Shown here: in pieces, positions 6,835-64,000 of the stretch
How positions within the stretch are numbered: position 1 is the stretch's first letter
Layout: each line of letters begins with the position of its first letter
DNA from: Dictyostelium discoideum
Lineage: Eukaryota
NCBI GenBank assembly: GCA_000004695.1
Contig: CM000151.3
Location: forward strand, 8,420,198-8,484,197
Length of the DNA stretch: 64,000 nt
Reading direction: 5' to 3'
Made by a program: the position numbers and the translations under genes
Notes under the pieces: model-generated
Told to the model about the DNA's origin: nothing
The model's input: the letters and a program-made list of their open reading frames with translations, nothing else
The model's database searches: none

Positions 6835-9228
6835 ATGAGCAATAGTTTTTTGCATTGTAAAAAATCAAATGATGAATTTGCAGAGAATTTAATATGGAGA
6901 AGGAATTTATTGACAGTATTTGAAAAGTTGGGAGAAAAAGATCAAATAGCTCATGCAATGCAATATTTGATATCACAAGTTCATGGATTATTAAATTTAA
7001 ATCAATTACAATTTTTTATGGATTGTATTGTTGAAAGTAGTGAGGATTTTAATAATATTGGTAAGAGGGAAGTTATAAAATTATTAGGTACAATGGTATC
7101 AATATTTAGGAATAGATTATCATCATATCTCAATAAGATCATTTCATTCATAATTAGAAGATTAAGTGAACCAACATCATCAGGATTATTAGAGATAACA
7201 TTGGAAACATTGGGTATAACTTGTAATAACATTATCATTGAACAAAAACATTTATTTAAAACCAATGGTGGTATTGGAAGTTGTAATGTAAATATCAATG
7301 GAAGCAATCTATCCAATAGTCTAAGTAGTAACCCAACTCAACAACAACAGCAACAACAATTATCAATTTCAACTAGTCTAATCGATGTTTATTTAAATCC
7401 AATATTAATGATAATCAATCTACCAAGTAGACATATTCAATGTGCTTCCATTCTGGCCATTCAAAAAGTGATTGAAAATATTTATGATATAAATAACTTA
7501 CTTTGTCCACAATTACCAAAGATTTTAAATCAACTTTTGAAAAAGTTAATAAATGTTCAATTACCATCATCATCATCGGCTTCAATGTCTTCATTTTCAA
7601 CTCAGTATTGTGTACCACATATACTTTCAACCATTTCAAGTTTATTTAAAATGGTTGGATCAAATTATTTCATTTATCATAATTCTCTATCTCATTCTTT
7701 AATTGATCAAATCAATGGTACTCTAATTTCAAATTCAATAAGAACTTTAACTTCAAATGATTGGACTGCTAGAAATTCTTCTGCAACTTTATTACAAACT
7801 ATTGTAGATATTCTTCCAAAATCATTTTATTTTAATAGGATAAATGATATTCTAAAATCTTTAAATGATTGTAAATATGATAAAGTATGTTTTTTAAATT
7901 TCTTTATTTAAATAAATTAAAATAAAATATATTAACCCCCTTTTTTTGTTTTTTTTAAAAAAAAAAAAAAGATAAAATCAATTAGAGATAGTGTAAATAA
8001 ATCAATTCAATTATATAATGAATCACTTTTAAATAATACAAATACAAATAATAATAATAATAATAATTTAGATAGTAGTAATAATAATCATAATAATAAT
8101 AATATAAACGAATCAAATAATAATTTTTATAATCAGCATAATCCACCAATTAATATTGTTAGTAATATACCGACAACTCCACCATTTATAGAAGCTAAAT
8201 TTAATAAACAATTTCAACAGCAACAGCAACAACAAAATCAATCAATTTATAATTCACCTTTATTAAAGTCACCACGTAAGACTTCACCAACTACACCATC
8301 AACGCCAACATCAACACCACCAATTCATTCACAACCAAGTCCATATAAAAAGTATACACCATTATCATCACCATCATTAAGTAGTAAGAAAATTACATCT
8401 TATTCTTCAATGTCATTATCATCTTCATCCTCTCAATCATCCAATAGTGGTAGTTTTAATATATCAAATACTACCACTACAAACCAATTACCATCGGCTT
8501 TTAAAACGAGTCCAACACCATCTTATTCAAATTCACCAATTTTAAAACCAACTACAACTTCAATTAATTTAAATACCACTTCTAAAATACCAACAAACTT
8601 TAAAGAATTTAATATATCTTCCTCTTCATCACTTTCTACTTCGCCTTTAATATTTTCAAATAATAAACAAGAATTACATCAACAACATCAACATCAACAT
8701 CAACAACATCAACAACAAATTGAACAAAAACAAAAACATCATTATCGGTACACAGATGAAGAAATAATTCATATGGTTGATAATAATAATAATGAGAACG
8801 AAAATGAAGATAATAATAATAATAATGATAAAAGTGATAATGAAGATAATAATAATAATCAAGATGAAACAAATATTTTAACTTTATCATCACTTGTGAA
8901 ATCACCAAATCCAAAACCAATAATATTTTCACCTTCAAAATCAACAAATAATACTACAAATAATTCATCATCGTCATCATCATCATCATCAACAACTACA
9001 ACAACCTCATCATCACCAAAATTAAATATAAAACCAAAAGAAACTATTACAACTACAACTACAATTACAACTGAAGAGAATGAAACATTGAAATTAATTC
9101 ACGAAATGATGAATTCAATGAACGATTTTATGATTGAAACTCGTGATAATATTGATCAAATTAAAAAAAGGTTAGGCGTTGTTGAATCTTCAGTTTTAAC
9201 ACTTCAAAAATATTATTTAACAAAATGA
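6835..9228 (+). CDS. Hypothetical HEAT/TOG-like repeat protein with Ser/Thr/Asn-rich middle and C-terminal coiled coil
   Basis: Exon 1 is 6835..7884 and exon 2 is 7972..9228; both junctions are phase 0. Donor GTATGT at 7885, acceptor AG at 7970-7971. The N-terminal ~350 aa shows repeated amphipathic helix pairs (IAHAMQYLISQVHGLL, ILAIQKVIENIY, TLLQTIVDILPKSFYF) typical of HEAT/TOG arrays. The C-terminus ...LKLIHEMMNSMNDFMIETRDNIDQIKKRLGVVESSVLTLQKYYLTK is coiled coil. A candidate 5' mini-exon at 6587..6615 would splice in frame to 6846; see findings. Confidence 0.55.
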
Positions 9229-9322
9229 TGATAATAATATAACAATAAACTTTATTTTATTTGAATTATTTTTAAAAAAAAAAAAAAAAATGAAAAATGA
9301 TAATAATAAATTTAAAATTATT

Positions 9323-9890
9323 TTAATTATTTAAATTTGAATTGTATAATTTTTTTAAAATTTCTTTTAAACCTTTTTTAATTGATAATATATTTTGATT
9401 ATTTTTTGCACTTATAGGTATAATATTCCATTCTTTACCTTTGAATAAATTTTTAGTTGCTTTTTTAAATTCTTCTAAATGACTCTCTGCATATTCACCA
9501 TCCATTTTATTGGCAATAATAATTGAGGGTTTATTAGTTAAACCAGGTTTATAATTTTCTAGTTCCTCTAAAAGACTTGAAAAATCTTTCCATGGTGTTC
9601 TATAGTGTTGATCATGGATTTTAGATTTAATTTCTTTTTTAGCCTCAATTAAATCATCTTCATCTTGAATATATCCATAACGATTTGTAACCACTTTTAC
9701 TTGTTTACCATCCCAAATTGCTGGTAAACCATTATTTGACATATCCAATACATAAACTATTGCTTTAGTTCTTTCAATATGACGAAGAAAATCTAAACCT
9801 AATCCTAAATTTAAATGTGCACCTTCTAAAATACCTGGTAAATCTGCAATTGTACTTGTTGGAATTGAATTTATTAAATTATTATTACCA

Positions 9891-9975
<85 letters not shown>

Positions 9976-11209
9976 TATTATTATTACTATAACCATTTAT
10001 AATATTATTAATATTTCTTTTACGTTTTGAAAGATTATTTGTACTATTAACTTTTGTTGAATTAAGTTTTTCTTTTAAAACTTGACTATCTATATCAAAG
10101 AAATCAATTACACCAACATATGGATTTAAAGTTGTGAATGCATAATTTTGAATATTTGGAATTGCATTTGAAATCACTGATAATAAAGTACTTTTACCAG
10201 CATTTGGGTAACCTACTAAACCAAAATCTGCAATGATTTTCAATTCTAATTCAATTCTTTTAATTTCACCTTTTGTACCTGGTTGAGCATATTCTGGTGA
10301 TCTATTTGAACCAGATGCAAAATTATAATTACCTTTTCCACCTAAACCACCTGATGCAACAACTACCTCTTGTCCAAATTCATTTAAATCAATTATATTA
10401 CCATTTTCAACCCATTTGTTATTACCATTATTATTGTTATTTTTAGTTGATTTACTATCGAGATGTGATATTATATTATTTGTATCATTGATTTTACCAT
10501 CTACAACCGGTGCACTTAATGCTTTTAAATAAAGTGCTGGATCGAATGATTCACTGGTTGGATCGAATCTTGGATCTTTTTTTGAGATTACATTTCCAGT
10601 ATCATCAGTTTCAAATTCTTGAATCTCTTCTCCATCATTAGTTTTTAGGACCAACTCTTTAATAACAGTTCCAATTGGTACACGTAAAACTATATCATCA
10701 CCATCTTTACCGGATTTTCTTGCACCCATACCCTTTTGACCATTTTCACCTTTATAGTTCTTTTTTAAATGTGAAAGATTATTATTATCAAAATCTGCTC
10801 TAACTATAATATTTGCACCACTACCACCATTACCACCATCAGGTGGACCTTCTGGTATATATTTTGCTCTGAAAAAACTAATTGCACCACCACCACCATC
10901 ACCAGCTTTAACACCAACTCTAATCTTATCAATGAATGAAAGATGTGAATGTGCTGATGGTTTTGATTTCTCTTTAATTTCTGATCCTAAATCTTGTGCT
11001 GTTTCTTTTAATTCTTGATATGACATCTCTTCCAATTTTTCAAATTCTTCACTTGGTTCATGTTTAAATGTTACTTTTGGTTCATTATAACTATTATAAT
11101 TATTATTATTATCTCTATCAATACTAATACAAAAATCTCTTTTAAAATAATTATATTTTATAAAATCATTTTTTAATTTAAAATTATTTAAAATTAAACA
11201 TTTTTTCAT
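9323..11209 (-). CDS. Obg-family GTPase (mitochondrial ribosome-associated, GTPBP5/MTG2-like)
   Basis: Single 628-aa ORF. Obg-fold glycine-rich N-domain (VKAGDGGGGAISFFRAKYIPEGPPDGGNGGSGANIIV). G1 ADFGLVGYPNAGKST, G3 DLPGILEGAH and G4 IIANKMD motifs are all present. A long poly-Asn insert sits in the G domain. The N-terminal basic, hydrophobic extension could be a mitochondrial presequence. Confidence 0.85.
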
Positions 11210-13700: not shown

Positions 13701-13798
13701 GTAATAATAGTAATAATAGTAATAATAATAATAATTATAATAGTAATTTAAATAAATTTAAATTTTATCTTTATTGTTTAAATAAGGAAATATCATAA
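12803..13798 (+). CDS. Hypothetical Asn-rich protein
   Basis: Exon 1 is 12803..13186 (donor GTAAAG) and exon 2 is 13280..13798 (acceptor ttttcag); both junctions are phase 0. Contains a coding (AAT)n tract. No recognisable domain. Confidence 0.45.
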
Positions 13799-53033: not shown

Positions 53034-55809
53034 AAGATAAAAAAAAAAAAAAAAAAAAATAAAAAAAAAAAAAAAATTAATTTTTCGTGCGAGAAATTAA
53101 TTTTCAAACTATTTGTGCATAAAATTATTTAAAATTTGTTTTAATTTAAAAAAAAATAATAAAAAAATAACTTTTTCTTTTTTAATCAAATTTTAAATTG
53201 TTTACTTAATCGCACACTTTTCCTATTTTGAATTTTTAAACCTCAAGGTTATCATAATAATATAAAAAATCAAGCAAAAATTTGGAAATTGTTTTTTTTT
53301 TATTATAATAAAGGTTAGTTCATTTGAACAGTTTTGTTTACTAAAAAAATTATTGTTAAAAAAAATTATTGCTAAAAAAAAAATAAAAATAAAATTATAA
53401 AAATAAAAAAATAAAAAATTATAATTTTCGAAGTTCATAGATATTTTGGTATGACAGGACAAACTTGTAAAAATTAAAAAAATTTGGGTGAAAAAAAAAA
53501 TATCAAATAAATTTTCTTTTTTTTTTTTTTTTTAATTTTATTTTTAGTAATCAAAAGATCTTTTAATCGATTTGGAGTTATAAAAAATGAATAATGTTAC
53601 AATTAATTTAGTTTTATTTACTATTTTTTTTTTTAAAAGATTTAAAAAAAAAATTTCCCCCTATTTTTAATATTGTTTTTTTAAAAGATTTAAAAAAAAA
53701 AACTCCCCTATTTTTAATATTATTTTGTTAAAAGATTTAAAAAAAAAACTTTTTTACTTTTTTTATTTTATTATTAATATTTTGAAACCAAAAAAATAAA
53801 AAATTAATTTAAAAATAATAAATTTTTGATTTTTTGGTTTAGTTCTATTAACGTCATACTTATAATTATCTGTTCGTATGTTTATTTTAAAGATTCGAAT
53901 CTTTAATTCTTGCTATCCTTTTAACATCTTTCACTTAAAAATAAATACATTGGACCTTTCTGTGAATAATTGAATTAATTCTGAAAAAAAAAAGTTATTT
54001 TGAAAAAGATCGAGTTATCCCGGAAAAGATCAATCTTTTCGCTAAAAATTTTTCATTGGCCATATTATTTTTTTTTTTTAATTTTTTTCATTTATTCACA
54101 ATTAAAATAAAAAATATAAAAATAAATAAATAAAATAAATAGTATGATTGACAAAAAAAATCAAAAATACCCCGGTAGGATTTATTTTTTATATGTAGTT
54201 TTTTTTTTTTGAAGTTCCTTTTTTTTTTTTGAAGTTCATTTTTTTTTATATTTTCTTTATTTCTCTATAAATACAACCAAATTTAATTCTACGATAGGTC
54301 TTAACAAATATTGTTTAATATTATTTAAAATTTTTGTTTTAAATAATGTGTTTTATTAAAAAAAAAAAAAAACATGTGAAAAGTGAAAAATTTTTCAAAA
54401 AAAAATAAACTTTTTTCGAAATAACTGAATTTATTCCGGGATAACTCGATCTTTTTTAAAATATGCTGAGTTAATTATAATTAATTCAATTATCCACTGA
54501 TAGGTCCATTATCATTTTTGTTAGAGACTCAAAACTAATTTAATTTTAAAGTTAGTATGAGCCCCAACAACTTTACAAATTTGCGCGTCTCCATGTAAAA
54601 ATATTTCATTTAATTTTAATTTTTATTTTTTAATTTTTTATTTTTTAAGTCGAAAAATAAAAAATTAAATTAAATTAAAATTTAAAAATAATAAAAATTC
54701 TGATTTTCGGTTTAGTTTCATAACGACCTTACTTTAATATTATGTATGTTTATTTTAAGATACGAGTCTTTCTCTATTTCTATCCCTAACAATATAAATA
54801 ATAACGATTGATGAAGATTGATGAAGATTGATGAAGATTGATGAAGATTGATGAAGATTGATGTAGATTGATATAGGATTAGATAGATTGGAATAGTGCC
54901 AATGACTTTTATTTTAACATAAGATGGAAATATTAAATAAATAATTAGATACAATCTTTATATAATTGCCTATACAATGACACCTCATGATGAAGAAGTC
55001 GACTCTTCAGATTAGAGGAATAACAGTAGTATTTAAAACAAAATAAAAATGCATTACAATGGCCCTTCTGTTTGCAAGATTAACGCTGTACTGCTTAGGC
55101 GGTACAACGACACTTCCTACTCACATTGTAAACATGCATCTTTTATAAAGTAATATAAAATAAGATTGTATCAATTAATTTAATAATATTCTAAATATAA
55201 ACAATGACACCTCAAACAGAGGAATAACTGTGTTGTTATATAAAAACAATGACACCTCAAACAGAGGAATAACTGTTATATAAAAGCAATGACACCTCAA
55301 ACAGAGGAATAACGGTATTGTAATAATATTAAGACACCACAATATATAATATTAGTGGAATAACAGTTAAACAAAGACACCACAATATAAATTATTAGTG
55401 GAATAACAATTAAACAAAGACACCACAGTATAAATTATTAGTGGAATAACAGTTAAACAAAGACACCACAATATAAATTATTAGTGGAATAACAGTTAAA
55501 CAAAGACACCACAGTATAAATTATTAGTGGAATAACAGTTATATAGATGTATTATTAATAAAAATAATTTAAGATAATATTTATTATCAATCAAATAAAG
55601 ACACCACAATAAAAATATATTAGTGGGATAACAGTTATAATATATTAATAATAATATCAATTATTTAATTTTAAAAATTAAAATAAATAAATTAAATAAA
55701 TTAAATTAATTTAATTAAATAAATTAAATAAATTAAATTAAATATATTAAATTAAATTAAATAAATTAAATTATATAATTTAAAATTTAAAATAAATTGT
55801 TGGTGAAAG

Positions 55810-56764
55810 TAATGACATCAACTACTACTCTTTCAAAGATAGCCATCCGTAAAGCCAAAGTGTCTTCCACCGCCAAATGTGCCGCTGAAGTGACCTCTGC
55901 CTCCGATGAAGCTATTTCTGTCCAAGCCAAACCAAAAAAGACCCTTCATCCCACTGAAGACGATGATTAACTTTATACTACCGAAAGCACGGACCTATCC
56001 GAGGCTGAAGTCAGAGAGAGAGCCTAAGAATTCAAAGACAACTCCATTGAAGCTAAAACCATTGATGCTTTTAAAAAATGATACCACTGCCTTCATCTTC
56101 ATGAATCTCTTTACCATCTACTTCCCCCTGTCTCCTCCCCCCAACCCAACCTTGATGACCATTATGGACAATGTACTACATCAAATGAATTATTCCATTT
56201 GCTTCAACCTGACCAATATGAATCAGTGAAGAACAACGATAATTTGAAGGTGTAACTTTGAGGAAGCTTATCCACCGTAACTTTAGACCCAAGACTTTGG
56301 TTCCCGTCAAAACTGACTACGAAGCTGCTAAAATTAAAGTGGTCTAAGCCATTAGCCATTGTAACAACCACTCAGCCTAATATGTTAAAAAAAACATCGA
56401 AGCAAATATGAGTTACAACAATGTAATTAATCCGATGTATCTCATCCATGGTACTGCTGATGTTCAATTAGATTATCTAAGATCAATTTTAGATAATAAT
56501 ATCCTTGCTTTGTTAAAGATGGTTATACCAGACTGGTTACAAACTGATGTTGCAATCAAGCTCAACCCTCAAACCGATATCACCGAGTGTCGTGAAGCTA
56601 TCACCGAGTTGGTTCTTTTCAATACTGATAAGTTTTCTAGAAGAAGATCTTCCGATTCGGCATCGAATACTGATGAGAAGTTTCCAATGAAAAATAATCA
56701 TGCTGTTCCAAATCATAACTCTCAAAGCAGGAATCACTTAGAGCTGAAATATAACCAAAGGTAA
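55810..56764 (+). pseudogene. Degenerate copy of the repeat-unit ORF (multiple stops and frameshifts)
   Basis: The translation MTSTTTLSKIAIRKAKVSSTAKCAAEVTSASDEA... is interrupted by stops. It resumes in other frames (ORF 56408..56764 ...NPMYLIHGTADVQLDYLRSILDNNILALLKMVIPDWLQTDVAIKLNPQTDITECREAITELV...) that are homologous to copy 2. Confidence 0.6.
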
Positions 56765-58185
56765 AAGATAATAAAATGGTAAATATCAACAAGATAAGAA
56801 ACAGTTACATTGTTTATCGTCATAGCAAAGGCTATTGTCTCAATTGTAGTCGTTCAAATTACTCTACATCTTTATGTAATGCCGATACTGTCAAGGTCAA
56901 AGTCAATCCATCAAGTCCATAAGCCAAAAAGCAACAATGACTCGATGAAGGTGATGAGTACAAGTCTAAGATTTTAAATAAAAATTATAAAATTTCACAA
57001 TATCATCACCCCGAGAAAATGGATGGTAAAGAGATTCATGAAGATGAGAGCAGTGGCAGCATTTTTTTAAAGCATCAATGGTTTTAGCTTCAATGGAGTT
57101 GTCTTTGACTTCTTTGGCTCTTTCTACCTGACTTCGAGTTTGGATATGTCAGTTCTTACAGTTGTATAAATTTCTTCATCGTCTCCAATGGGATGAAGAG
57201 TCTTTTTTGATTTCACTTGAACTTGGGTAGCATCATCCGAGGCGAATGCACTTCAGCAGCACATTTGGTGGTGGAAGACACTTTGGCTTTACGAATGGCT
57301 TTTTTTGAAAGAGTAGTTGTTCTAGACTCAAAACTAAATTAATTTAAAGTTAGTATGAGCTCAACAACGTAACAAATTCGCGCATCTCCATGTAAAAATA
57401 TTTCATTTAATTTTAATTTTTTATTTTTTCATTTGAAAAATAAAAAATTAAATTAAATAAAATAAAATTAAATTAAAATTTAAAAAAATAATAAAAATTC
57501 TGATTTTCGGTTTAGTTTTCATAACGCCCTTACTTTTAATTATCTCTTTTATATATGTTTACTTTTATGATATTAGTCTTTCACTCTTTCTATCCTTCAT
57601 ATTAAAAAACATTACTTTAAAGATTGGACAGTTTGATTAAAGATTGAACAAATGTGACAATGGATTGAAGATTAGTGTGAGTGAATTTTACACTTTTTTT
57701 TCTAATTTTAACATAAAACAAATACATTAAAACAAATAATTAGATACAATCCTTATATTTCGTATACAATGGCACCTCATGATGAAGAAGTCGACTCTTC
57801 AGATTAGAGGAATAACAGTAGTATTTAAACAAAATAAAAATGCATTACAATGGCCCTTCAGTTTGCAAGATTAACGCTGTACTGCTTAGGCGGTACAACG
57901 ACACTTCTTACTCACATTATAAACATGCATCTTTTATAAAGTAATATAAAATAAGATTGTATCAATTAATTTAATAATAATGCTCAAATACAAAGACACC
58001 ACAATATAAATTATTAGTGGAATAACAGTTAACATATATTAATACTTATATTAATTATTTAATTAAAAATTAAATTAAATTAAATTAAATAAATTAAATT
58101 AAATTATAAAATTAAATTATAAAAATTAAATTATAAAATTAAATTATATTTAATAAATTTTATATATAATTGTTGGTGAAAGTCA

Positions 58186-59227
58186 TGTCATCAACTACTA
58201 CTCCTTCAAAGAAAGCCATCCGTAAAGCCAAAGTGTCTTCCACCGCCAAACGTGCCGCTGAAGTGACAACCGCCTCCGATGATGCTATTACTGTTCAAGT
58301 AAAATCAAAAAAGACTCTTCGTCCCACTGAAGTCGATGATGAAATTTATTCAACTGAAAGCACTGATGTATCCGACGTCGAAGTCAGAGAGAAAGTGCCA
58401 AAGAAATCAAAGACCAATTCCATTGAAGCTAAAACCATTGACGCTTTAAAAAATGCTGCCACTGCTGTCATCTTCATGAATCTCTTTACCATCCACTGCT
58501 CCCAGAATGGTGTTGAACCAACCTTGAAGACCATTATGGACAATGGTGCTGCATCAAATGAATTATTTCAATTGCTTCAACCTACCCACAATGAATCAGT
58601 TAAGAACATTGAAGAAGGTGGAGCATTGAAGAAGCTAATACACCGTAACTTTATATCCAAGACTTTGGTTCCATTCAAAACTGACTACGAAGCTGCCAAC
58701 ACTAAAGTAGTAGAAGCTATTAACCATCGTAACTGCTACTCAGCCCAAGATGTTATAAAAAACATCGAAGCCATTATGAGTTACCACAATGTAATTAATC
58801 CGGTGTATCTAATCCATGGTACTGCTGAAGTTCAATTAGAGTATCTAAGATCAATTTTAGATAATAATATCATTGCTTTGTTAAAGATGGTCGTACCAGA
58901 CTGGTTACAAACTGATTAATCAAACTCAACACTCAAACCGATATCACCGAGTGTCGTGAAGCCTTCACCGAGTTGGTTCTTAACAATGCTGATAAGTTCT
59001 CGAGAAGAAGACCTTCCGATTCCGCATCGAATACTGATGAGAAGTTTCCATTAAAAAAGAATCATGCTACTCCAAATCATAACTCTAATAACAGGAATTC
59101 CTTTGATGCACAAGCTGATAAGATTAGAGCTGCAATATTACCCGAAATAAGAAAAGACTCTAAGGTAGACCTCAAAAAGATAAGAAGCAGCACAGCGGCG
59201 AAAATCAACACTTTAAAGCACCTTTAA
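58186..59227 (+). pseudogene. More intact copy of the repeat-unit ORF, ~350 aa, with one in-frame stop / small deletion at 58917
   Basis: The translation MSSTTTPSKKAIRKAKVSS...VINPVYLIHGTAEVQLEYLRSILDNNIIALLKMVVPDWLQTD stops with TAA where copy 1 reads through. The remainder is ORF 58973..59227 (...ADKFSRRRPSDSASNTDEKFP...KIRAAILPEIRKDSKVDLKKIRSSTAAKINTLKHL*). No RT, integrase, transposase or endonuclease motifs recognised. Confidence 0.55.
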
Positions 59228-59639
59228 ATCCAAGTACTCTTTTTAATATATATTAATAAGTATACTTAATAAGTAATACTTAATAAGCACACTTAATAAG
59301 TATTGTTGTAGGGAATTTTTTTTGAAATTTCGCTTTCTAAACGGCAGTGAATTTTTACACTAAAATACGCTGTTTATGCATGGTGTAAAAATTCACTAAA
59401 TTTTTTTTTTTTATAATTAAATTAAAAAACAATTTATTTAATCAAAAAAATTAAAAACCAATTTTATTCAGTTATTTGCTTGTTTATTTATTTTTTTATA
59501 ACAAAAAAATTTAGTTTGCGCCATTTTTTTTTTTTTTTTTTTTTTTCAAATTATTTTTTTCAATTTTTTTTTTTATCGATTGTTTTCATTTTTGGGGAAT
59601 AAAATAAAATTGTTCGATAAAAAAAAAATTGAAAAAAAT

Positions 59640-59686
<47 letters not shown>

Positions 59687-59902
59687 GGTTTATATTTTAA
59701 TTATGGTATTCATATAATTATTTTTAGTATTTATATTATTTATAATTATAAACTCGAGTTAATAGAATTATTATTATTATTATTATTATTTAAATGCGGG
59801 TCAACTATAATTAGTGTCTTTGTTCACTTATTTAATATTAACTTATTTTTGTGTCTTCGTTACATAAAAAAAAAAATGAAAAAAAAAAAATAAAAAAAAA
59901 AA

Positions 59903-59942
<40 letters not shown>

Positions 59943-59951
59943 AATGCAAAA

Positions 59952-60650
59952 GTGAATTTAATTACTGAAACAGAAATAATGAATTTCCACTTGTTGTTAC
60001 ATTATCCAATCTATATAAAAAATTGGGGTGCACCAAAATACACTTCAGCTGAAACTTTTGAAGCACAATTATCAAGAATTAAAAATTATTTAAATAATAA
60101 TACAAATAATAGGGATGAACAATATGAAAGGGTTACCAAATTAAACATGGTGAAATTTTTTAATTCAGTAGATAAATTAAAAAGTATTGAGCCTGAAAGT
60201 ACAGCATTAATTATTGGTAACAAAATAAAAAATCCAGATAATATAGATAACATAAAAATTAAATTAGATTCATTATTTCAAAATTATAAAAATATAACTT
60301 TTCACTCATCAATTAAAAATAATAAAGAAATATACAATGTTGGTGATGCAGTTGAAGTTGCATCAGATAATGAACTTTCAGGTAGATGGTCAGGTATTAT
60401 CAATTCAATATCAATGATTGAAATGGGTGATAACATAATAAAACATGCAATATTATTAAATTATTTTGACAAATATGTTGGTGACCAATTTAATAAATAC
60501 CATTTTCTTTCAAATGAATTAAATTATATTACATATGATAATATTCTAAATAATGTTATACCAATTCAAATTGATGATACCAATTACCTTATTATTTACA
60601 AGTGCCACGATAAATTCTCGGCTTCAAAAAATAAAAAATCAAAAAATTAA
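59952..60650 (+). CDS. Hypothetical protein, member A of an inverted-duplicated gene pair
   Basis: 232-aa ORF. Shares the block KEIYNVGD.VEVASDN..SGRWS.II......E...N...H.I...YFDKY.GDQFNKYHFL...I.YDNI.N..IPIQIDD.NYLIIYKCHDKFS.SK with the minus-strand ORF 62870..63373. Confidence 0.5.
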   Translation: MNLITETEIMNFHLLLHYPIYIKNWGAPKYTSAETFEAQLSRIKNYLNNNTNNRDEQYERVTKLNMVKFFNSVDKLKSIEPESTALIIGNKIKNPDNIDNIKIKLDSLFQNYKNITFHSSIKNNKEIYNVGDAVEVASDNELSGRWSGIINSISMIEMGDNIIKHAILLNYFDKYVGDQFNKYHFLSNELNYITYDNILNNVIPIQIDDTNYLIIYKCHDKFSASKNKKSKN

Positions 60651-60766
60651 AAACTTTTTTACATAATTTTTACATTGTTATGTAAATAATGATTTTTTTT
60701 TTAATTTTTTTTCATTTTCGGGCAGACTGAAAAAGCGAAAATGATTTCAATACATATTTTTTTAAA

Positions 60767-61156
60767 ATGAATTCATCTGCAAATTTTATAGCACCAAATG
60801 GTAATGTACCTGATTTTAACCAATCACCAATCCAAAGAAGAACAAACAATAATATTTCTATCGGAGATGAATCATTTAATAATTTGTCAATAGGTAATGT
60901 ATTAGGAAATGCAAATGTTCCAAACCCAATGGAAAACCAGAGAATAATAATTAGAAGAGTTCCAAGGCCAACTGTTCCACCAATCCAAGAAACAGTGCAA
61001 ATAGCCACAAACCCACGTGTAACATACATATTGGAATACGAAAGTCTTCAGAAAGTTTGTCAAAGTAAATACTATTCAGATGGCGATGTATGTTACCAGA
61101 TTAATACACAGGGGCGAAAAAAAATACTTAAAAGCATCTTTAAAGTAGGAATGTAA
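60767..61156 (+). CDS. Hypothetical protein, member B (apparently truncated copy of the minus-strand gene at 61675..62722)
   Basis: 129-aa ORF. The RRVPRPTVPPIQETVQIATNPRVTYILEYESLQKVCQSKYYSDGDVCYQINTQG block is homologous to B-prime exon 1-2, but the ORF then terminates (RKKILKSIFKVGM*). Its 3' end is DNA-similar to the 3' end of the repeat-unit ORF at 59190-59230. Confidence 0.4.
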   Translation: MNSSANFIAPNGNVPDFNQSPIQRRTNNNISIGDESFNNLSIGNVLGNANVPNPMENQRIIIRRVPRPTVPPIQETVQIATNPRVTYILEYESLQKVCQSKYYSDGDVCYQINTQGRKKILKSIFKVGM

Positions 61157-61500
61157 ATAGTACTATTATGAAGTGTACTTAATAAGTATAATTATAAAGT
61201 ATACTTTTTAAGTATACTTATTAAATATACTTATAAAGTATACTTATTAAGTATACTTATTAAATATACTTATTAAGTATACTTATTAAATACACTTATT
61301 AAGTATACTTATTAAGTATACTTATTAAGTATAATTATTAAGTATACTTATTAAGTATACTTAATAAGAATACTTATTAAGTATTATTATTAAGTATTAT
61401 TATTAAGTATACTTATTAAGCGTAATTACTAATTATAATTATAATGTACTCTTTAAAAGTACACTTATTAAGTATTCTTATTAATTATATTTATAAAATT
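61150..61500. repeat. 13-bp minisatellite (taagtatacttat)n, ~25 units with variants
   Basis: Seen directly. A short run of the same motif recurs at 59240..59310, 3' of repeat-unit ORF copy 2. Confidence 0.85.
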
Positions 61501-61674
61501 CAATTTAAAAGTGCATTTATAAATTTATATTATAAAGTTAACTTAATAATATCACTTTAAAAATAAAAATTAAAAATAAAAATTTAAAATAAAAATTAAA
61601 TAAAGATTTAAAAAAAAAAGAAAAAATTAAAGTTGAGTATGTGAAATCATATTAATTTTTTTTATTTAAACGAT

Positions 61675-61988
61675 TTAATTTAGTGGAGCATAAAGAGGTA
61701 TTGAAGTGAATTCAAAAGCAACCTTTTCAGTGTAAGTAAGTTCATCAGGAGAGTCAATGAACTTTTGAGAAACACCACGCAATGCTTTAACTATTAAAGA
61801 AATAAGAGGTTTGGAACCGCTGTACCATTCTTTTTCTTCAATTGTAAAGCATTGAGACACTAAGAACTTTACAAAAGGATCGGAGTCAAAAGCTTCTAAG
61901 GTAACTGTATCGATAATAAGAGTGGCCAAATCAAAAGGAGTTATCTAAATAATAATTAAAAAATTAAAAAAACAAATTATTAATAATT

Positions 61989-62074
<86 letters not shown>

Positions 62075-62335
62075 CCGATTCATACTCCATTAATGCTGGA
62101 ACCTGAGAGAGCAACTCGCTGAACTGTTCTACTTTATTTCTAACTAAAAGTCTAATGGTATTTAGGGCTTTAATACGTGTGTTACCACGTTTATTGTTGA
62201 CCCATTTAACCAATTTGGATAGAACAACTTTATTTTCATTTGAATTTGTACCGCCAGCATTTAATATACAGGTCCTAATAAAACGAGAGGAAATCTTATG
62301 TATTATTTTTGTTTATTTAATTTAATTAGTCTCTT

Positions 62336-62432
<97 letters not shown>

Positions 62433-62722
62433 TATCTTACCTTACCAGTTGCATAGTATTGAGAAACACAATTTCTGTGCAATGTTTCATACACCAATAT
62501 TTTTTCTACAATATTTGTTGTTGGTGGATGACTTGCATTTGGTCTTTGAGGTCTTTGTTGTCTTCTAACAGTACGTTGTGGACCTATGGAGGTATCAGTT
62601 TGATTTAAAATAAGAGATGGTATTGGTGTTATTGGTGATGTTGGTGAAGTTAAAGATGATCTATTTACATAATTACCACTTCTATTTGGTGTTTCAAATG
62701 ATGCAGAATTATTGTGAGTCAT
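61675..62722 (-). CDS. Hypothetical multi-exon gene B-prime (paralog of 60767..61156)
   Basis: Exon 1 runs 62722 down to about 62441/62446 and ends ...QYYATG with a ggtaaggtaag donor. Exon 2 is about 62076..62275 (..TCILNAGGTNSNENKVVLSKLVKWVNNKRGNTRIKALNTIRLLVRNKVEQFSELLSQVPALMEYES, donor GTTTGT). Exon 3 is 61675..61944 (ITPFDLATLIIDTVTLEAFDSDPFVKFLV...IPLYAPLN*). The exon 1/2 phase is unresolved. Introns contain long poly-T tracts. Confidence 0.4.
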
Positions 62723-62869
62723 TTTTTTTATAATATTTTTTTAATTTTTTTTTAAAATCCTATAATTTCCAACCGAAAAAAAAAGAAAATTGGAAAAAAA
62801 GAAAAAAAAAAAAAAGAAAAAGTTACGTAAAAATGTAAAAGTTATGTAAATAAGTTCAACGAATTTTTT

Positions 62870-63373
62870 TCATTTTTTTTTTTTACTTATTGAAAATTGG
62901 TCATGGCACTTATAAATTATAAGATAGTTAGACGAATCGATTTGTATTGGTATTAATGTGTTTACTATGTTATCAAATACTATACTTGAAAAGCTTTTTC
63001 TTAAAAAGTGGTACTTATTATTTTGATCACCTGTATCTTTATCAAAGTATTGTATATAAATAGAATGTGCACTTTTTTTATTTTTTAATTCTATTAAACA
63101 AATAGCAATAATTATTGCACTCCATCGTCCAGTTATTGAATTTTCTGAGGCAACTTCAATTCCATCACCAACATTATATATTTCTTTTAAATTTTTAATT
63201 GATTTATGAAATTGAATATTTTCAATGTTTTTGTAATGCAAGTTAATGTCTGATAAAATATTATTTTTTAAATAAATATTTTCATTTTTTTTAATTATTT
63301 GCCCTAAAATTAAATCATTATTGTCATCATCTTTTTCTTTTAGATTGTTAAAATTATCTAAAAATGTTGCCAT
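62870..63373 (-). CDS. Hypothetical protein A-prime (inverted paralog of 59952..60650)
   Basis: 167-aa ORF with the same conserved C-terminal block as member A (...NYLIIYKCHDQFSISKKKK). Confidence 0.5.
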   Translation of the reverse strand: MATFLDNFNNLKEKDDDNNDLILGQIIKKNENIYLKNNILSDINLHYKNIENIQFHKSIKNLKEIYNVGDGIEVASENSITGRWSAIIIAICLIELKNKKSAHSIYIQYFDKDTGDQNNKYHFLRKSFSSIVFDNIVNTLIPIQIDSSNYLIIYKCHDQFSISKKKK

Positions 63374-63374
63374 T

Positions 63375-63900
63375 AATATTTTTGTTACCTATCGATTGTC
63401 AATAGCAAGTATCGAGCTTAGAGCCCATTTTAAAAATTTAATTTTTTTTTTTTCCAAAATTTTTCCAAGTCAAAAAATTTTTCCCAAATGAGCAATTTGA
63501 CATTCCCAAATAAAAATTAAAAGTTTTTTATAATGTTACTATGGATAATATTAATGAAATTAAGTTACCTACCGATTGTCAATAGCAAGTATTGAGTGTA
63601 GAACCCATTTTAAAAATTTGAAATTTTTTTTTTTTTTGAATTTTTTCTTAGTTAAAAATTTTCCCAAATGAGCAATTTGAAATTCCCAAATAAAAATTAA
63701 AAGTTTTTTATAATGTTACTATGTATAATATTAATGAAATTAAGTTATCTATCGATTTACAATAGTAACTATAGGTTAATTAATCGATTTTAAAATTTTA
63801 ATTTTTCAAAATTTTCAATTAAATTAACAACTTTTTTAAGGTATAGTTACTCTTTAGAAAATATGTTACTATGTATAATATTAATAAAATTACATTATAT
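63375..63900. repeat. Tandem ~190-bp repeats (about 2.7 units) abutting an assembly gap
   Basis: Units begin tacctatcgattgtcaatagcaagtatcgag...ttttcccaaatgagcaatttga.attcccaaataaaaattaaaagttttttataatgttactatg.ataatattaatgaaattaagtta. The N run at 63901..64000 follows. Confidence 0.8.
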
Positions 63901-64000
63901 NNNNNNNNNNNNNNNNNNNNNNNNNNNNNNNNNNNNNNNNNNNNNNNNNNNNNNNNNNNNNNNNNNNNNNNNNNNNNNNNNNNNNNNNNNNNNNNNNNNN

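Follow-up and report, generated by a model that had tools for sequence, protein, structure and literature searches.

A probable transposon nest, rather than an inverted gene-pair duplication, near a chromosome end of Dictyostelium discoideum

Did the four open reading frames that face each other near a chromosome end of Dictyostelium discoideum arise through the inverted duplication of a two-gene module? The window, i.e. the whole 64,000-nucleotide stretch of DNA analyzed here, contains between 59.9 and 63.4 kb the forward-strand frames A (59952-60650) and B (60767-61156), followed by the reverse-strand genes B' (61675-62722) and A' (62870-63373). An earlier note had read this arrangement as such a duplication, with B as a truncated copy. 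Our results bear out the convergent layout A(+) B(+) ... B'(-) A'(-) and the relatedness within each pair, but not the duplication. The region from 59.19 to 63.39 kb is very probably a transposon nest and not a duplicated gene pair: it comprises two broken copies, from two diverged subfamilies, of one cut-and-paste DNA transposon, which lie tail-to-tail near the chromosome end. In this nest, A is what remains, at the 3' side, of the transposase gene of a type-1 element, and B is exon 1 of the second gene (ORF2) of that element; on the opposite strand, a type-2 element contributes B', its complete second gene, and A', the 3' portion of its transposase gene.

The products of A and A' are clearly paralogous, with 86 of 167 residues identical (51%; BLASTP, E 2e-55). 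At the DNA level, an inverted match of 68.8% over 458 nt connects the A arm (60275-60719) with the A' arm (63237-62785), extending about 70-85 nt beyond both stop codons into the A-B intergenic DNA. The DNA shows no symmetry beyond this block and the adjoining intergenic stretch. B is identical to exon 1 of B' at just 14 of 33 positions (E 2e-6). However, full-length B-type proteins from other copies match B' in each of its three exons (32% over 209 aa, E 3e-29), which establishes B as a genuine truncated homolog that consists of exon 1 and a read-through.

Much closer relatives of each arm are located on chromosome 1 and among the unplaced contigs. The identity of A with residues 578-813 of DDB_G0267352 is 98.3% (over 236 aa) and that of A' with DDB_G0267250 and DDB_G0267228 is 98.8% (over 172 aa), with values of 98-100% for B and DDB_G0294266, DDB_G0267354 and DDB_G0294326 and of 99% for B' and DDB_G0267230. 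Thus, the arms share 98-99% of their amino acids and 90-98% of their nucleotides with dispersed copies, as opposed to 51% and 69%, respectively, with each other, which identifies them as independent pieces of two old subfamilies. A local inverted duplication of an ancestral A-B pair, followed by divergence and the loss of the 3' exons of one B, would explain why the layout is convergent, as in palindromic gene pairs and inverted segmental duplications in general, and why the A/A' similarity reaches into the A-B intergenic DNA. In contrast to the arms of such duplications, however, those in the window are not mutual closest relatives, and their divergence is found equally along the whole 815-aa proteins elsewhere, with DDB_G0267352 (813 aa, chromosome 1) and DDB_G0267250 (816 aa) being 49% identical over 818 aa. 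Moreover, the arm boundaries are unsymmetric and represent transposon termini and truncation points (59940, 5' truncation; 61106/61107, terminus within an intron; 63388, 180-bp repeat), and the partner of B'-A' in a sister strain is a full-length type-1 element. Local duplication is therefore extremely unlikely; the identity hierarchy, with the arms closer to distant copies than to each other, refutes it.

The transposon reading draws support from the element ends. These are terminal inverted repeats (TIRs) that start with CACAG(G/C)GGCGAAAA and are followed by near-palindromic 13-mer arrays. CACAG...CTGTG termini are found in all copies, and the TIRs fall exactly at the homology break points. 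In the window, positions 59191-59228 and 61107-61144 are identical at 32 of 38 ungapped positions from CACAG onward, and the 14-mer CACAGSGGCGAAAA occurs twice, compared with an expected 0.04 times. The 13-bp minisatellite that the earlier note had described behind the truncated B, TTATTAAGTATAC, comprises 25.3 copies (61166-61494), and its short version comprises 4.2 copies in the reverse-complement register (59249-59303); the palindromic core AAGTATACTT has 11 occurrences in the window, confined to these two sites. The DNA shared by the 3' ends of B and of a neighboring repeat-unit frame (ggcgaaaa...ctttaaa), together with its link to the minisatellite, is equally real and corresponds to the terminal repeat, with the 13-mers beyond. 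It does not reflect an exchange of 3' sequence between the two frames, as had been suggested, but arises because both enter TIR copies at the insertion junctions 59190/59191 and 61106/61107.

A complete insertion at locus L003 (12971-18494) carries TIRs at both ends of one copy (12971, +, and 18494, -; T2 and T1-like) and splits an EamA gene, whose frame is restored by deleting one copy of the dinucleotide AC (Pfam EamA in one stretch, E 1e-18). The sister strain additionally contains two 0.76-kb non-autonomous relatives (MITEs; L006 7275-8021 and 9168-9926) with the ends CACAGC...GCTGTG, both of which are absent from the window, so that the MITE insertions are polymorphic between strains. Comparison of the empty sites in the window with the filled sites in L006 revealed 2-bp duplications (AA and CA). 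Three insertions thus show 2-bp target duplications (AC, AA and CA); in a discordant case, the direct repeat flanking one T1 pair in L001 is 8 bp long (TTAAATAT).

At the left border of the nest, a solo TIR fragment of type T1 (59191-59303, +) reads CACAGCGGCGAAAATCAACACTTTAAAGCACCTTTAAATCC... and then four 13-mers, with its outer end at 59191 and its interior to the right. It breaks unit 2 of the neighboring 2.8-kb repeat, and 59190/59191 can be recognized as a junction because the flanking repeat runs on past that point in L001 17780. The T1 head has matches (85-98%) at element ends in L003 (18494) and L004 (8613). Heads that are 89-90% identical to T1 at L001 10872, L001 13764 and L005 1419 are end-like in appearance, and for these L001 and L005 heads no far end could be paired through a target duplication. 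Elsewhere, T1 constitutes the 5' TIR of type-2 elements (L003 12971-18494, L001 and L005). The adjacent spacer (59304-59939), which has no relative among loci L001-L005, contains a hairpin (59346-59397; z-score -3.45) and two poly(A) stretches (59619-59681 and 59866-59939), adjoins the 5' truncation point of A and is unchanged in the first sister-strain copy (L006 8022-9167).

The A fragment (59940-60650, +) comprises codons 578-813 of an 813-aa protein; in L004, its frame is unbroken upstream (VLIES/FNAKV), where the window has poly(A). Of the transposase motifs, it retains HxxxH and the E proposed as catalytic, but neither of the two candidate D residues nor CxxC is present; thus, it cannot be an active transposase. 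Exon 1 of B (60767-61087, +), which is 100% identical to DDB_G0277785, is followed by a GTATGT donor at 61088, and intron 1 is represented by its initial 19 nt (61088-61106). At this point, 19 nt into the intron, sits the 3' terminus of the type-2 element, which accounts for the truncation of B. The final 22 codons of the annotated B frame (61088-61153; stop codon 61154-61156) accordingly read through the intron start into a foreign TIR. In both L004 and L006, by comparison, the B sequence goes on through the intron into exons 2-3.

The 3' end of the type-2 element (61107-61674, -) opens with a T2 TIR head (outer end, 61107) that reads CACAGGGGCGAAAAAAAATACTTAAAAGCATCTTTAAAGTAGGAA. The head gives way to the 13-bp subterminal repeat array (61166-61494), beyond which lies the AT-rich DNA that flanks B' on its 3' side. 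This 3' end is colinear with the sequences starting at L001 13644, L003 12704 and L005 11798. T2 is terminal in all four of four copies, each of which has different flanking DNA, and the junction of gttaccagattaata and CACAGGGG at 61106/61107 is also found in the long-read sister-strain assembly. The intact ORF2 of this element, B' (61675-62722, -; DDB_G0277819, 256 aa), has exons at 62441-62722, 62076-62294 and 61675-61944, a model that is the sole GT-AG solution and whose spliced product is exactly DDB_G0277819. Its introns (146 and 131 nt) are largely poly(A) on the sense strand and harbor the long poly-T runs (62334-62427, 94 nt; 61987-62069, 83 nt) previously described as intronic. At an identity of at least 90%, B' clusters with other proteins in a group of 19 sequences, including DDB_G0267230, DDB_G0267252 and DDB_G0274765. 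The A' fragment (62870-63388, -; DDB_G0277821) covers codons 645-816 of an 816-aa protein and lacks any catalytic motif. Its homology to L001, L003 and L005 ends at 63388, where the type-2 copy loses its 5' portion to a 180-bp subtelomeric repeat. This tandem repeat (63384-63898; period 180, at least 2.2 copies) is followed by an assembly gap (63901-64000); in the sister strain, the repeat continues, and an SSU/5.8S/LSU rDNA unit is located about 4.9 kb from it. Neither of the two copies in the window is able to transpose alone.

The order of transposase gene and ORF2 recurs in L001, L002, L003, L004, L005 and L007. In AX4, no fewer than 23 gene models, spread over chromosomes 1 and 2 and unplaced contigs, belong to this dispersed family, with many more in five other assemblies, and many of the family's copies are cut at differing points and nested within one another and within retroelements. 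With DIRS/Skipper-type retroelement genes and rDNA as its setting, and a telomeric rDNA unit about 5 kb away, the locus fits the anticipated picture of a multicopy family that is specific to Dictyostelium and resides in subtelomeric DNA rich in transposons. The suggestion that A and B are cargo of a common element family holds as far as the single family is concerned, although the two are genes of the element itself rather than cargo. Types 1 and 2 are old subfamilies of this Dictyostelium-specific family, whose transposases are 49% and second genes 32% identical. Measured from where the transposase gene starts, the 3' TIR ends after about 4.3 kb (L005 7508-11799); allowing for a further 5' leader and TIR, we estimate a full element at about 5 kb. 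Models in AX4 such as DDB_G0267352 and DDB_G0267250 have names without a transposon label.

Since every family member is annotated as hypothetical and has no Pfam domain, and the B' frames are intact in many copies, these sequences could alternatively be ordinary host genes, forming a Dictyostelium-specific subtelomeric family that spread by segmental duplication, with the adjoining repeats as unrelated satellites. However, the modules are bounded by inverted terminal repeats, with 2-bp target duplications revealed by comparing empty with filled sites, the copies are truncated and nested in the various ways described, and the large protein displays a motif order characteristic of a transposase clade (see below). 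We therefore regard a host-gene family as very unlikely.

The sister-strain assembly, GCA_054883475.1, a long-read assembly whose strain identity is inferred, sheds light on the structure of the AX4 reference at this locus. Its first type-1 copy corresponds to the left part of the window (T1, spacer and truncated A) but has an intact B, and its second, located 11.6 kb downstream, corresponds to the right part (B exon 1 followed by T2, B' and A') but encodes a full 839-aa transposase. At 59954 the window agrees with copy 1, and from 61107 on it follows copy 2; the 1.15 kb between these points are identical in both copies. In the sister strain, the roughly 10.3 kb of sequence beyond the type-2 copy do not contain B exons 2-3, the missing remainder of the type-1 element, so that the arrangement does not amount to a straightforward nested insertion preserved in full; the rDNA unit starts about 4.9 kb out, beyond the type-2 copy. 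There is roughly an even chance that the joining of a truncated A to a truncated B in AX4 reflects the collapse of two near-identical type-1 copies during assembly, as suggested by the assignment of the two window parts to separate copies, the identity of the DNA between the switch points and the assembly gap that follows at 63901. Yet, a real 11.6-kb deletion in the AX4 lineage, caused by unequal recombination between two direct repeats, would give the identical pattern, and GCA_054883475.1 also differs from the window by the two MITE insertions.

Collectively, these results matter little for the original reading beyond removing a false gene-pair duplication; the region represents ordinary repeat biology. 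The gene models DDB_G0277785, DDB_G0277819 and DDB_G0277821 all derive from transposons, and two of the three are fragments. Three by-products may be useful for Dictyostelium genomics: a motif-based assignment to the EnSpm/Mirage/Transib group for these transposases, whose elements now have defined ends and a target duplication of 2 bp; a small non-autonomous relative that differs in position between two near-identical strains; and an AX4 reference that seems to be short by about 11.6 kb here, be it through assembly collapse or real deletion.

Both full-length proteins of about 815 aa combine an N-terminal zinc finger with the motif order D..D..CxxC..HxxxH..E, which in DDB_G0267352 corresponds to the candidate residues D292-D369-C389xxC392-H594xxxH598-E618, with the D and E residues assigned by pattern. 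Remote homologs, an aphid protein among them, all retain H594, H598 and E618. We infer from the sequence that the protein is a DDE transposase of the CMCT type (EnSpm/Mirage/Chapaev/Transib), with D292, D369 and E618 as candidate catalytic residues and C389, C392, H594 and H598 as a candidate zinc site. Pfam searches returned no transposase model below an E value of 1 for the transposase-like proteins or ORF2, so that the DDE assignment rests on motifs only. The sole match in a PDB sequence search was RAG1L, at the CxxC motif, and not significant (E 1.2). The AlphaFold models of A and B' are of low confidence (pLDDT 43) and thus provide no fold evidence.

The family shares with the CMCT clade its 5'-CAC...GTG-3' termini, its short subterminal repeat arrays and a 2-bp target-site duplication, a length that falls in the clade's range of 2-5 bp and is typical of Mirage, as well as the pattern-assigned layout D369 ... 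C389-x2-C392 ... H594-x3-H598 ... E618. Its two-gene architecture resembles that of En/Spm (TnpD and TnpA), and the small second protein may, by analogy, be an accessory factor, possibly binding the 13-mer array like TnpA. The family departs from the clade in several respects: its sequences yield no significant match to the transposase models of Pfam, the large protein carries a C2H2-like zinc finger at its N terminus and a C-terminal region predicted, in a low-confidence model, to be beta-rich, ORF2 has no detectable similarity to TnpA, and the T1 and T2 ends of one element are unlike each other. In mouse RAG1, the relevant residues are D708, C727/C730, H937/H942 and E962. The candidate residues are spaced nearly as in this protein (20 residues from D369 to C389, 202 from C392 to H594 and 20 from H598 to E618). 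In the wider comparison with RAG1, RAG1L (ProtoRAG) and Transib transposases, the TIRs are not RSS-like past the initial CAC, and the 2-bp target-site duplication differs from the 5 bp of Transib/RAG.

The DDT class of elements was reportedly described in 2001 by Gloeckner et al. The family studied here probably belongs to this class, which it matches by description. Like DDT, it is a D. discoideum-specific class II family with an estimated size near the roughly 5.5 kb of DDT and a transposase unlike known families, its copies are fragmented and nested in DIRS/Skipper-rich regions, and it has a short relative of about 0.76 kb; the comparison brought no difference to light. Three papers describe DDT-A, DDT-B and DDT-S as D. 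discoideum-specific class II elements, with transposases reported to be unlike known families and a DDT-B consensus of 5471 bp (PMC5633606, PMC2665215, PMC9012585). The DIRS/Skipper and rDNA setting agrees with the clustering of DDT elements reported in one of these papers (PMC2665215). It is tempting to speculate, albeit tentatively, that DDT-type elements are a Dictyostelium lineage of the CMCT clade, given their CAC termini, 2-bp duplications and RAG1-like spacing of the D, D, CxxC, HxxxH and E motifs; that they are still mobile in laboratory lineages, given the two 0.76-kb MITE insertions that separate the AX4 reference from a near-identical strain; and that their conserved ORF2 encodes a TnpA-like factor binding to the palindromic 13-mer arrays.

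The paired genes A-B and B′-A′ are real but ordinary features of this locus: each pair is a fragment of a mobile element, the two fragments come from different subfamilies, and both lie in a subtelomeric transposon nest. The window has a G+C content of 23% and a 100-N gap at its end. Within it, three of the genes are identical to proteins encoded on chromosome 2 of D. discoideum AX4, namely B (60767-61156, plus strand) to DDB_G0277785, spliced B′ (61675-62722, minus strand) to DDB_G0277819 and A′ (62870-63388, minus strand) to DDB_G0277821. A and A′ share 86 of 167 residues (BLASTP, E 2e-55). The corresponding DNA (60275-60719 versus 63237-62785; 68.8% identity over 458 nt) provides the sole non-trivial inverted match within 59.4-63.9 kb and runs 70-85 nt beyond both stop codons. 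The similarity of B to exon 1 of B′ is limited to 14 of 33 residues. Since other copies encode longer B-type proteins (P0027, P0030 and P0032) that align with all three exons of B′ (32% identity over 209 aa, E 3e-29), B is nevertheless a true homolog of B′ that ends after exon 1. For B′, a single GT-AG model (exons 62441-62722, 62076-62294 and 61675-61944) yields DDB_G0277819, with T runs of 94 nt and 83 nt inside its two introns. Tandem Repeats Finder identified 25.3 copies of TTATTAAGTATAC at 61166-61494 and 4.2 copies in the complementary register at 59249-59303. The alignments, the gene model and the repeat analysis bear out the features described in the earlier note, i.e. the paralogy of A and A′, the truncation of B, the minisatellite, the poly-T introns and the common 3′ sequence.

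Homology searches returned numerous relatives, all from Dictyostelium. Several of them (P0023, P0025, P0019 and P0020) reach far upstream of the part matching A, and cluster look-ups combined with a full-library profile search yielded the full-length forms DDB_G0267352 (813 aa), ACTFIR_002349 (852 aa) and DDB_G0267250 (816 aa; named "C2H2-type domain-containing protein" in UniProt). Followed from 59940, the reading frame of A matches residues 578-813 of DDB_G0267352 with 98.3% identity, and A′ shows 98.8% identity both to residues 645-816 of DDB_G0267250 and to DDB_G0267228. DDB_G0267352 and DDB_G0267250 are themselves only 49% identical over 818 aa, so that the 51% identity of A and A′ reflects the family-wide distance between two subfamilies, type 1 and type 2, rather than a local duplication. 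Likewise, other B-type copies share 98-100% identity with B, and B′ is 99% identical to DDB_G0267230, as against 32% between the two types. In all readable comparison loci (L001, L002, L003, L004, L005 and L007), a small gene (ORF2) of matching type lies ~150 bp behind the large gene. The proposal that the A-B pair had undergone a local inverted duplication must therefore be rejected, because each arm is 98-99% identical to copies elsewhere and the arms only 51% to each other. The alternative put forward alongside it, that A and B are parts of an element family, is essentially right: they belong to dispersed two-gene copies bounded by terminal inverted repeats (TIRs).

The limits of these copies are marked by TIR heads starting with CACAG. 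The segment 61107-63388 is colinear with L001 13644-11610, L003 12704-10610 and L005 11798-9329, and the T2 head (CACAGGGGCGAAAAAAA...CTTTAAAGTAGGAA) forms the limit of homology in all four copies, with different DNA outside each. A second type, T1 (CACAG(C/G)GGCGAAAATCA..CTTTAAATCC), occurs at the apparent opposite end of type-2 copies (L001 10872, L005 1419 and, as a T1-like head, L003 18494) and also at window position 59191. Next to either head lies an array of the 13-mer AAGTATACTTATT, whose core AAGTATACTT is a perfect palindrome. The 14-mer head occurs twice in the window (0.04 expected), exactly on the two junctions. At 59190/59191, the neighboring 2.8-kb repeat is broken at a point where its relative in L001 is uninterrupted; at 61106/61107, the window turns to T2 19 nt past a GTATGT donor, at a point past which the type-1 copy L004 (98% identical) continues into the first intron of B and its exon 2. 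From CACAG on, ORF B and the neighboring repeat ORF have 32 of 38 bases in common at their ends. Given that homology breaks at these heads, the C-terminal tails of both ORFs are translated transposon termini, and the suggested exchange of 3′ sequence between them did not take place. T1 at 59191 was also considered as a 5′ TIR belonging to the A-B copy; this reading was rejected because full-length type-1 copies carry another TIR type (CACAGCAAAGAAAAATGC) and T1 pairs with type-2 elements.

Additional heads built on this pattern (CACAGCAA.GAAAA...CTTTAAAG with short tandem repeats) are found from L003 ~18885 onwards, at L001 10349 and at L002 1318, and suggest that these genomes contain three or more related types of TIR. 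Window positions 53400-59190 hold two tandem ~2.8-kb units of another repeat family, the second cut by T1 at 59191; this repeat has relatives at L001 90-1184, a short way upstream of the reverse transcriptase gene of an LTR retrotransposon, and at L001 17780-18335. In addition, 59346-59397 contains a 16-bp inverted repeat (AGTGAATTTTTACACT ... GGTGTAAAAATTCACT) followed by a T run, which folds better than 200 of 200 shuffled sequences (z = -3.45). No tRNA genes were detected in the window between 50 and 64 kb.

The arrangement in the reference can be compared with that in a sister strain (GCA_054883475.1), which is probably AX2-214, judging from exact protein matches and the associated preprint (bioRxiv 10.1101/2025.08.01.668227). 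Its locus, near the end of a 4,885,842-bp contig at a distance of 21-45 kb, is colinear with window positions 59939-62357 (98.9%) and 62404-63900 (99.8%), so that the junction between the B intron and T2 is real. The partner at this junction is a full-length type-1 element encoding an 839-aa transposase. A separate type-1 copy 11.6 kb upstream, in which B is intact, carries the 5′-truncated A along with T1, the spacer and poly(A). At 59954 the window sides with this upstream copy, and from 61107 on with the downstream one; over the intervening 1.15 kb the two do not differ. The two type-1 copies are 99.9% identical, and the ~11.6 kb separating them in this long-read assembly is absent from the AX4 reference (59940-61106). 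Because the window matches two different copies, either the AX4 reference collapses two repeats, a possibility in keeping with the adjacent assembly gap at 63901, or AX4 carries a real 11.6-kb deletion that arose by unequal recombination between the two copies. A simple, preserved nested insertion does not account for the type-1/type-2 junction, because exons 2-3 of B are absent from the ~10.3 kb of sister-strain sequence past the type-2 copy. This copy is cut off beyond A′ by a 180-bp tandem repeat (63384-63898; L007 ~9000-10000). In the sister strain, a complete SSU-5.8S-LSU rDNA unit follows ~4.9 kb beyond these repeats, which places the right end of the window in a subtelomeric region; the unit is the rDNA-derived cap known from Dictyostelium chromosome ends (PMC2665215).

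Other loci retain traces of transposition. In D. cf. discoideum (GCA_054859235.1), the segment L003 12971-18494, bounded by T2 on one side and by a T1-like head on the opposite side, interrupts a GC-rich EamA-transporter pseudogene, whose flanks, rejoined minus one AC, give one continuous Pfam EamA match (E 1e-18). Moreover, two elements of 755-760 bp with the ends CACAGC...GCTGTG occur in the sister strain (L006 7275-8021 and 9168-9926). The corresponding AX4 sites, at window positions 58917 and 60073, are empty, with a single AA in one case and a single CA in the other; in the filled sites the dinucleotide is present twice. These three cases indicate a 2-bp target duplication. They outweigh the 8-bp target duplication (hAT or Zisupton-like) considered for L001, where a copy of the 0.76-kb MITE makes up the left flank; the 8-bp direct repeat concerned, TTAAATAT at 10864-10871 and 13765-13772, surrounds a pair of T1 repeats. 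The clean AA and CA duplications and the absence from the AX4 reference suggest recent mobility of the small element. Its heads are of the same type as that located ~1 kb upstream of the full-length type-1 transposase gene (L006 18579), and these small elements probably derive from type 1 as non-autonomous forms. They read CACAGCGAAGAAAAAACC...TTTCTTTGCTGTG and contain tRNA-like B-box sequences. The EamA pseudogene (L003 12708-12970 and 18495-18880), which one type-2 element splits and a second one borders, has ~45% GC inside a Dictyostelium transposon nest. Given its bacterial-looking composition, it could be a horizontally acquired fragment; Chlamydiae endosymbionts occur in some isolates, according to the source paper of the assembly.

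Pfam searches with A, A′, B, B′, the neighboring repeat ORF and their partial and full-length homologs gave no meaningful match. The transposase-like proteins share conserved blocks (LLRIF(T/S)D, TMDIPEFR, CHTC, PDILHNILLG, FHLLLHYP and SAE(T/R)FEAQ), and DDB_G0267352 shows the motif order D292, D369, C389-x2-C392, H594-x3-H598 and E615/E618. A profile search detected remote homologs, including a pea-aphid protein, that have D.MH, H-x3-H-Y-P and RFE.KH in common, with H594, H598 and E618 invariant. A, which retains only the HxxxH and E part, and A′, which lacks any catalytic motif, are dead fragments. The ORF2 copy, B′, is intact. The AlphaFold models of A and B′ (pLDDT 43.3 and 43.5) are too poor for fold comparison, and a Tudor/Agenet-like reading of the C-terminal "YNVGDxVEV..GRWS" block was dropped on this account. 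B′ is predicted, with low confidence, to have a disordered Arg/Pro-rich N-terminus and an all-helical remainder. By analogy with En/Spm TnpA, one could speculate that the ORF2 protein may bind the subterminal 13-mers.

Judged by their motifs, these elements appear to share all three features defining the CMCT clade (EnSpm/CACTA, Mirage, Chapaev and Transib, with RAG1). In mouse RAG1, the relevant residues are D708, C727/C730, H937/H942 and E962, and the spacings of the candidate residues here (20, 202 and 20 residues) are close to these. Searches of PDB sequences with a single protein and two profiles retrieved only RAG1L, at the CxxC motif (E 1.2), a family-profile match that is a hint rather than evidence. 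This CMCT-like signature, the 2-bp target duplication, the polymorphic MITE and the possible 11.6-kb reference collapse are by-products of modest interest; the element is of a known kind and very probably already catalogued. The DNA transposons of D. discoideum comprise the Tdd, DDT and thug families, with transposases reported to resemble no known family (PMC5633606). DDT elements make up ~20% of the DIRS-rich centromeric regions, where they are highly fragmented and nested (PMC2665215), and the DDT-B consensus measures 5471 bp (PMC9012585). In L001-L005, the present elements are accompanied by DIRS-type recombinase and Skipper-type reverse transcriptase/integrase genes. We infer that they are DDT elements, matched by published description rather than by consensus sequence, with their size, host range, genomic company and nesting behavior all consistent with this family.
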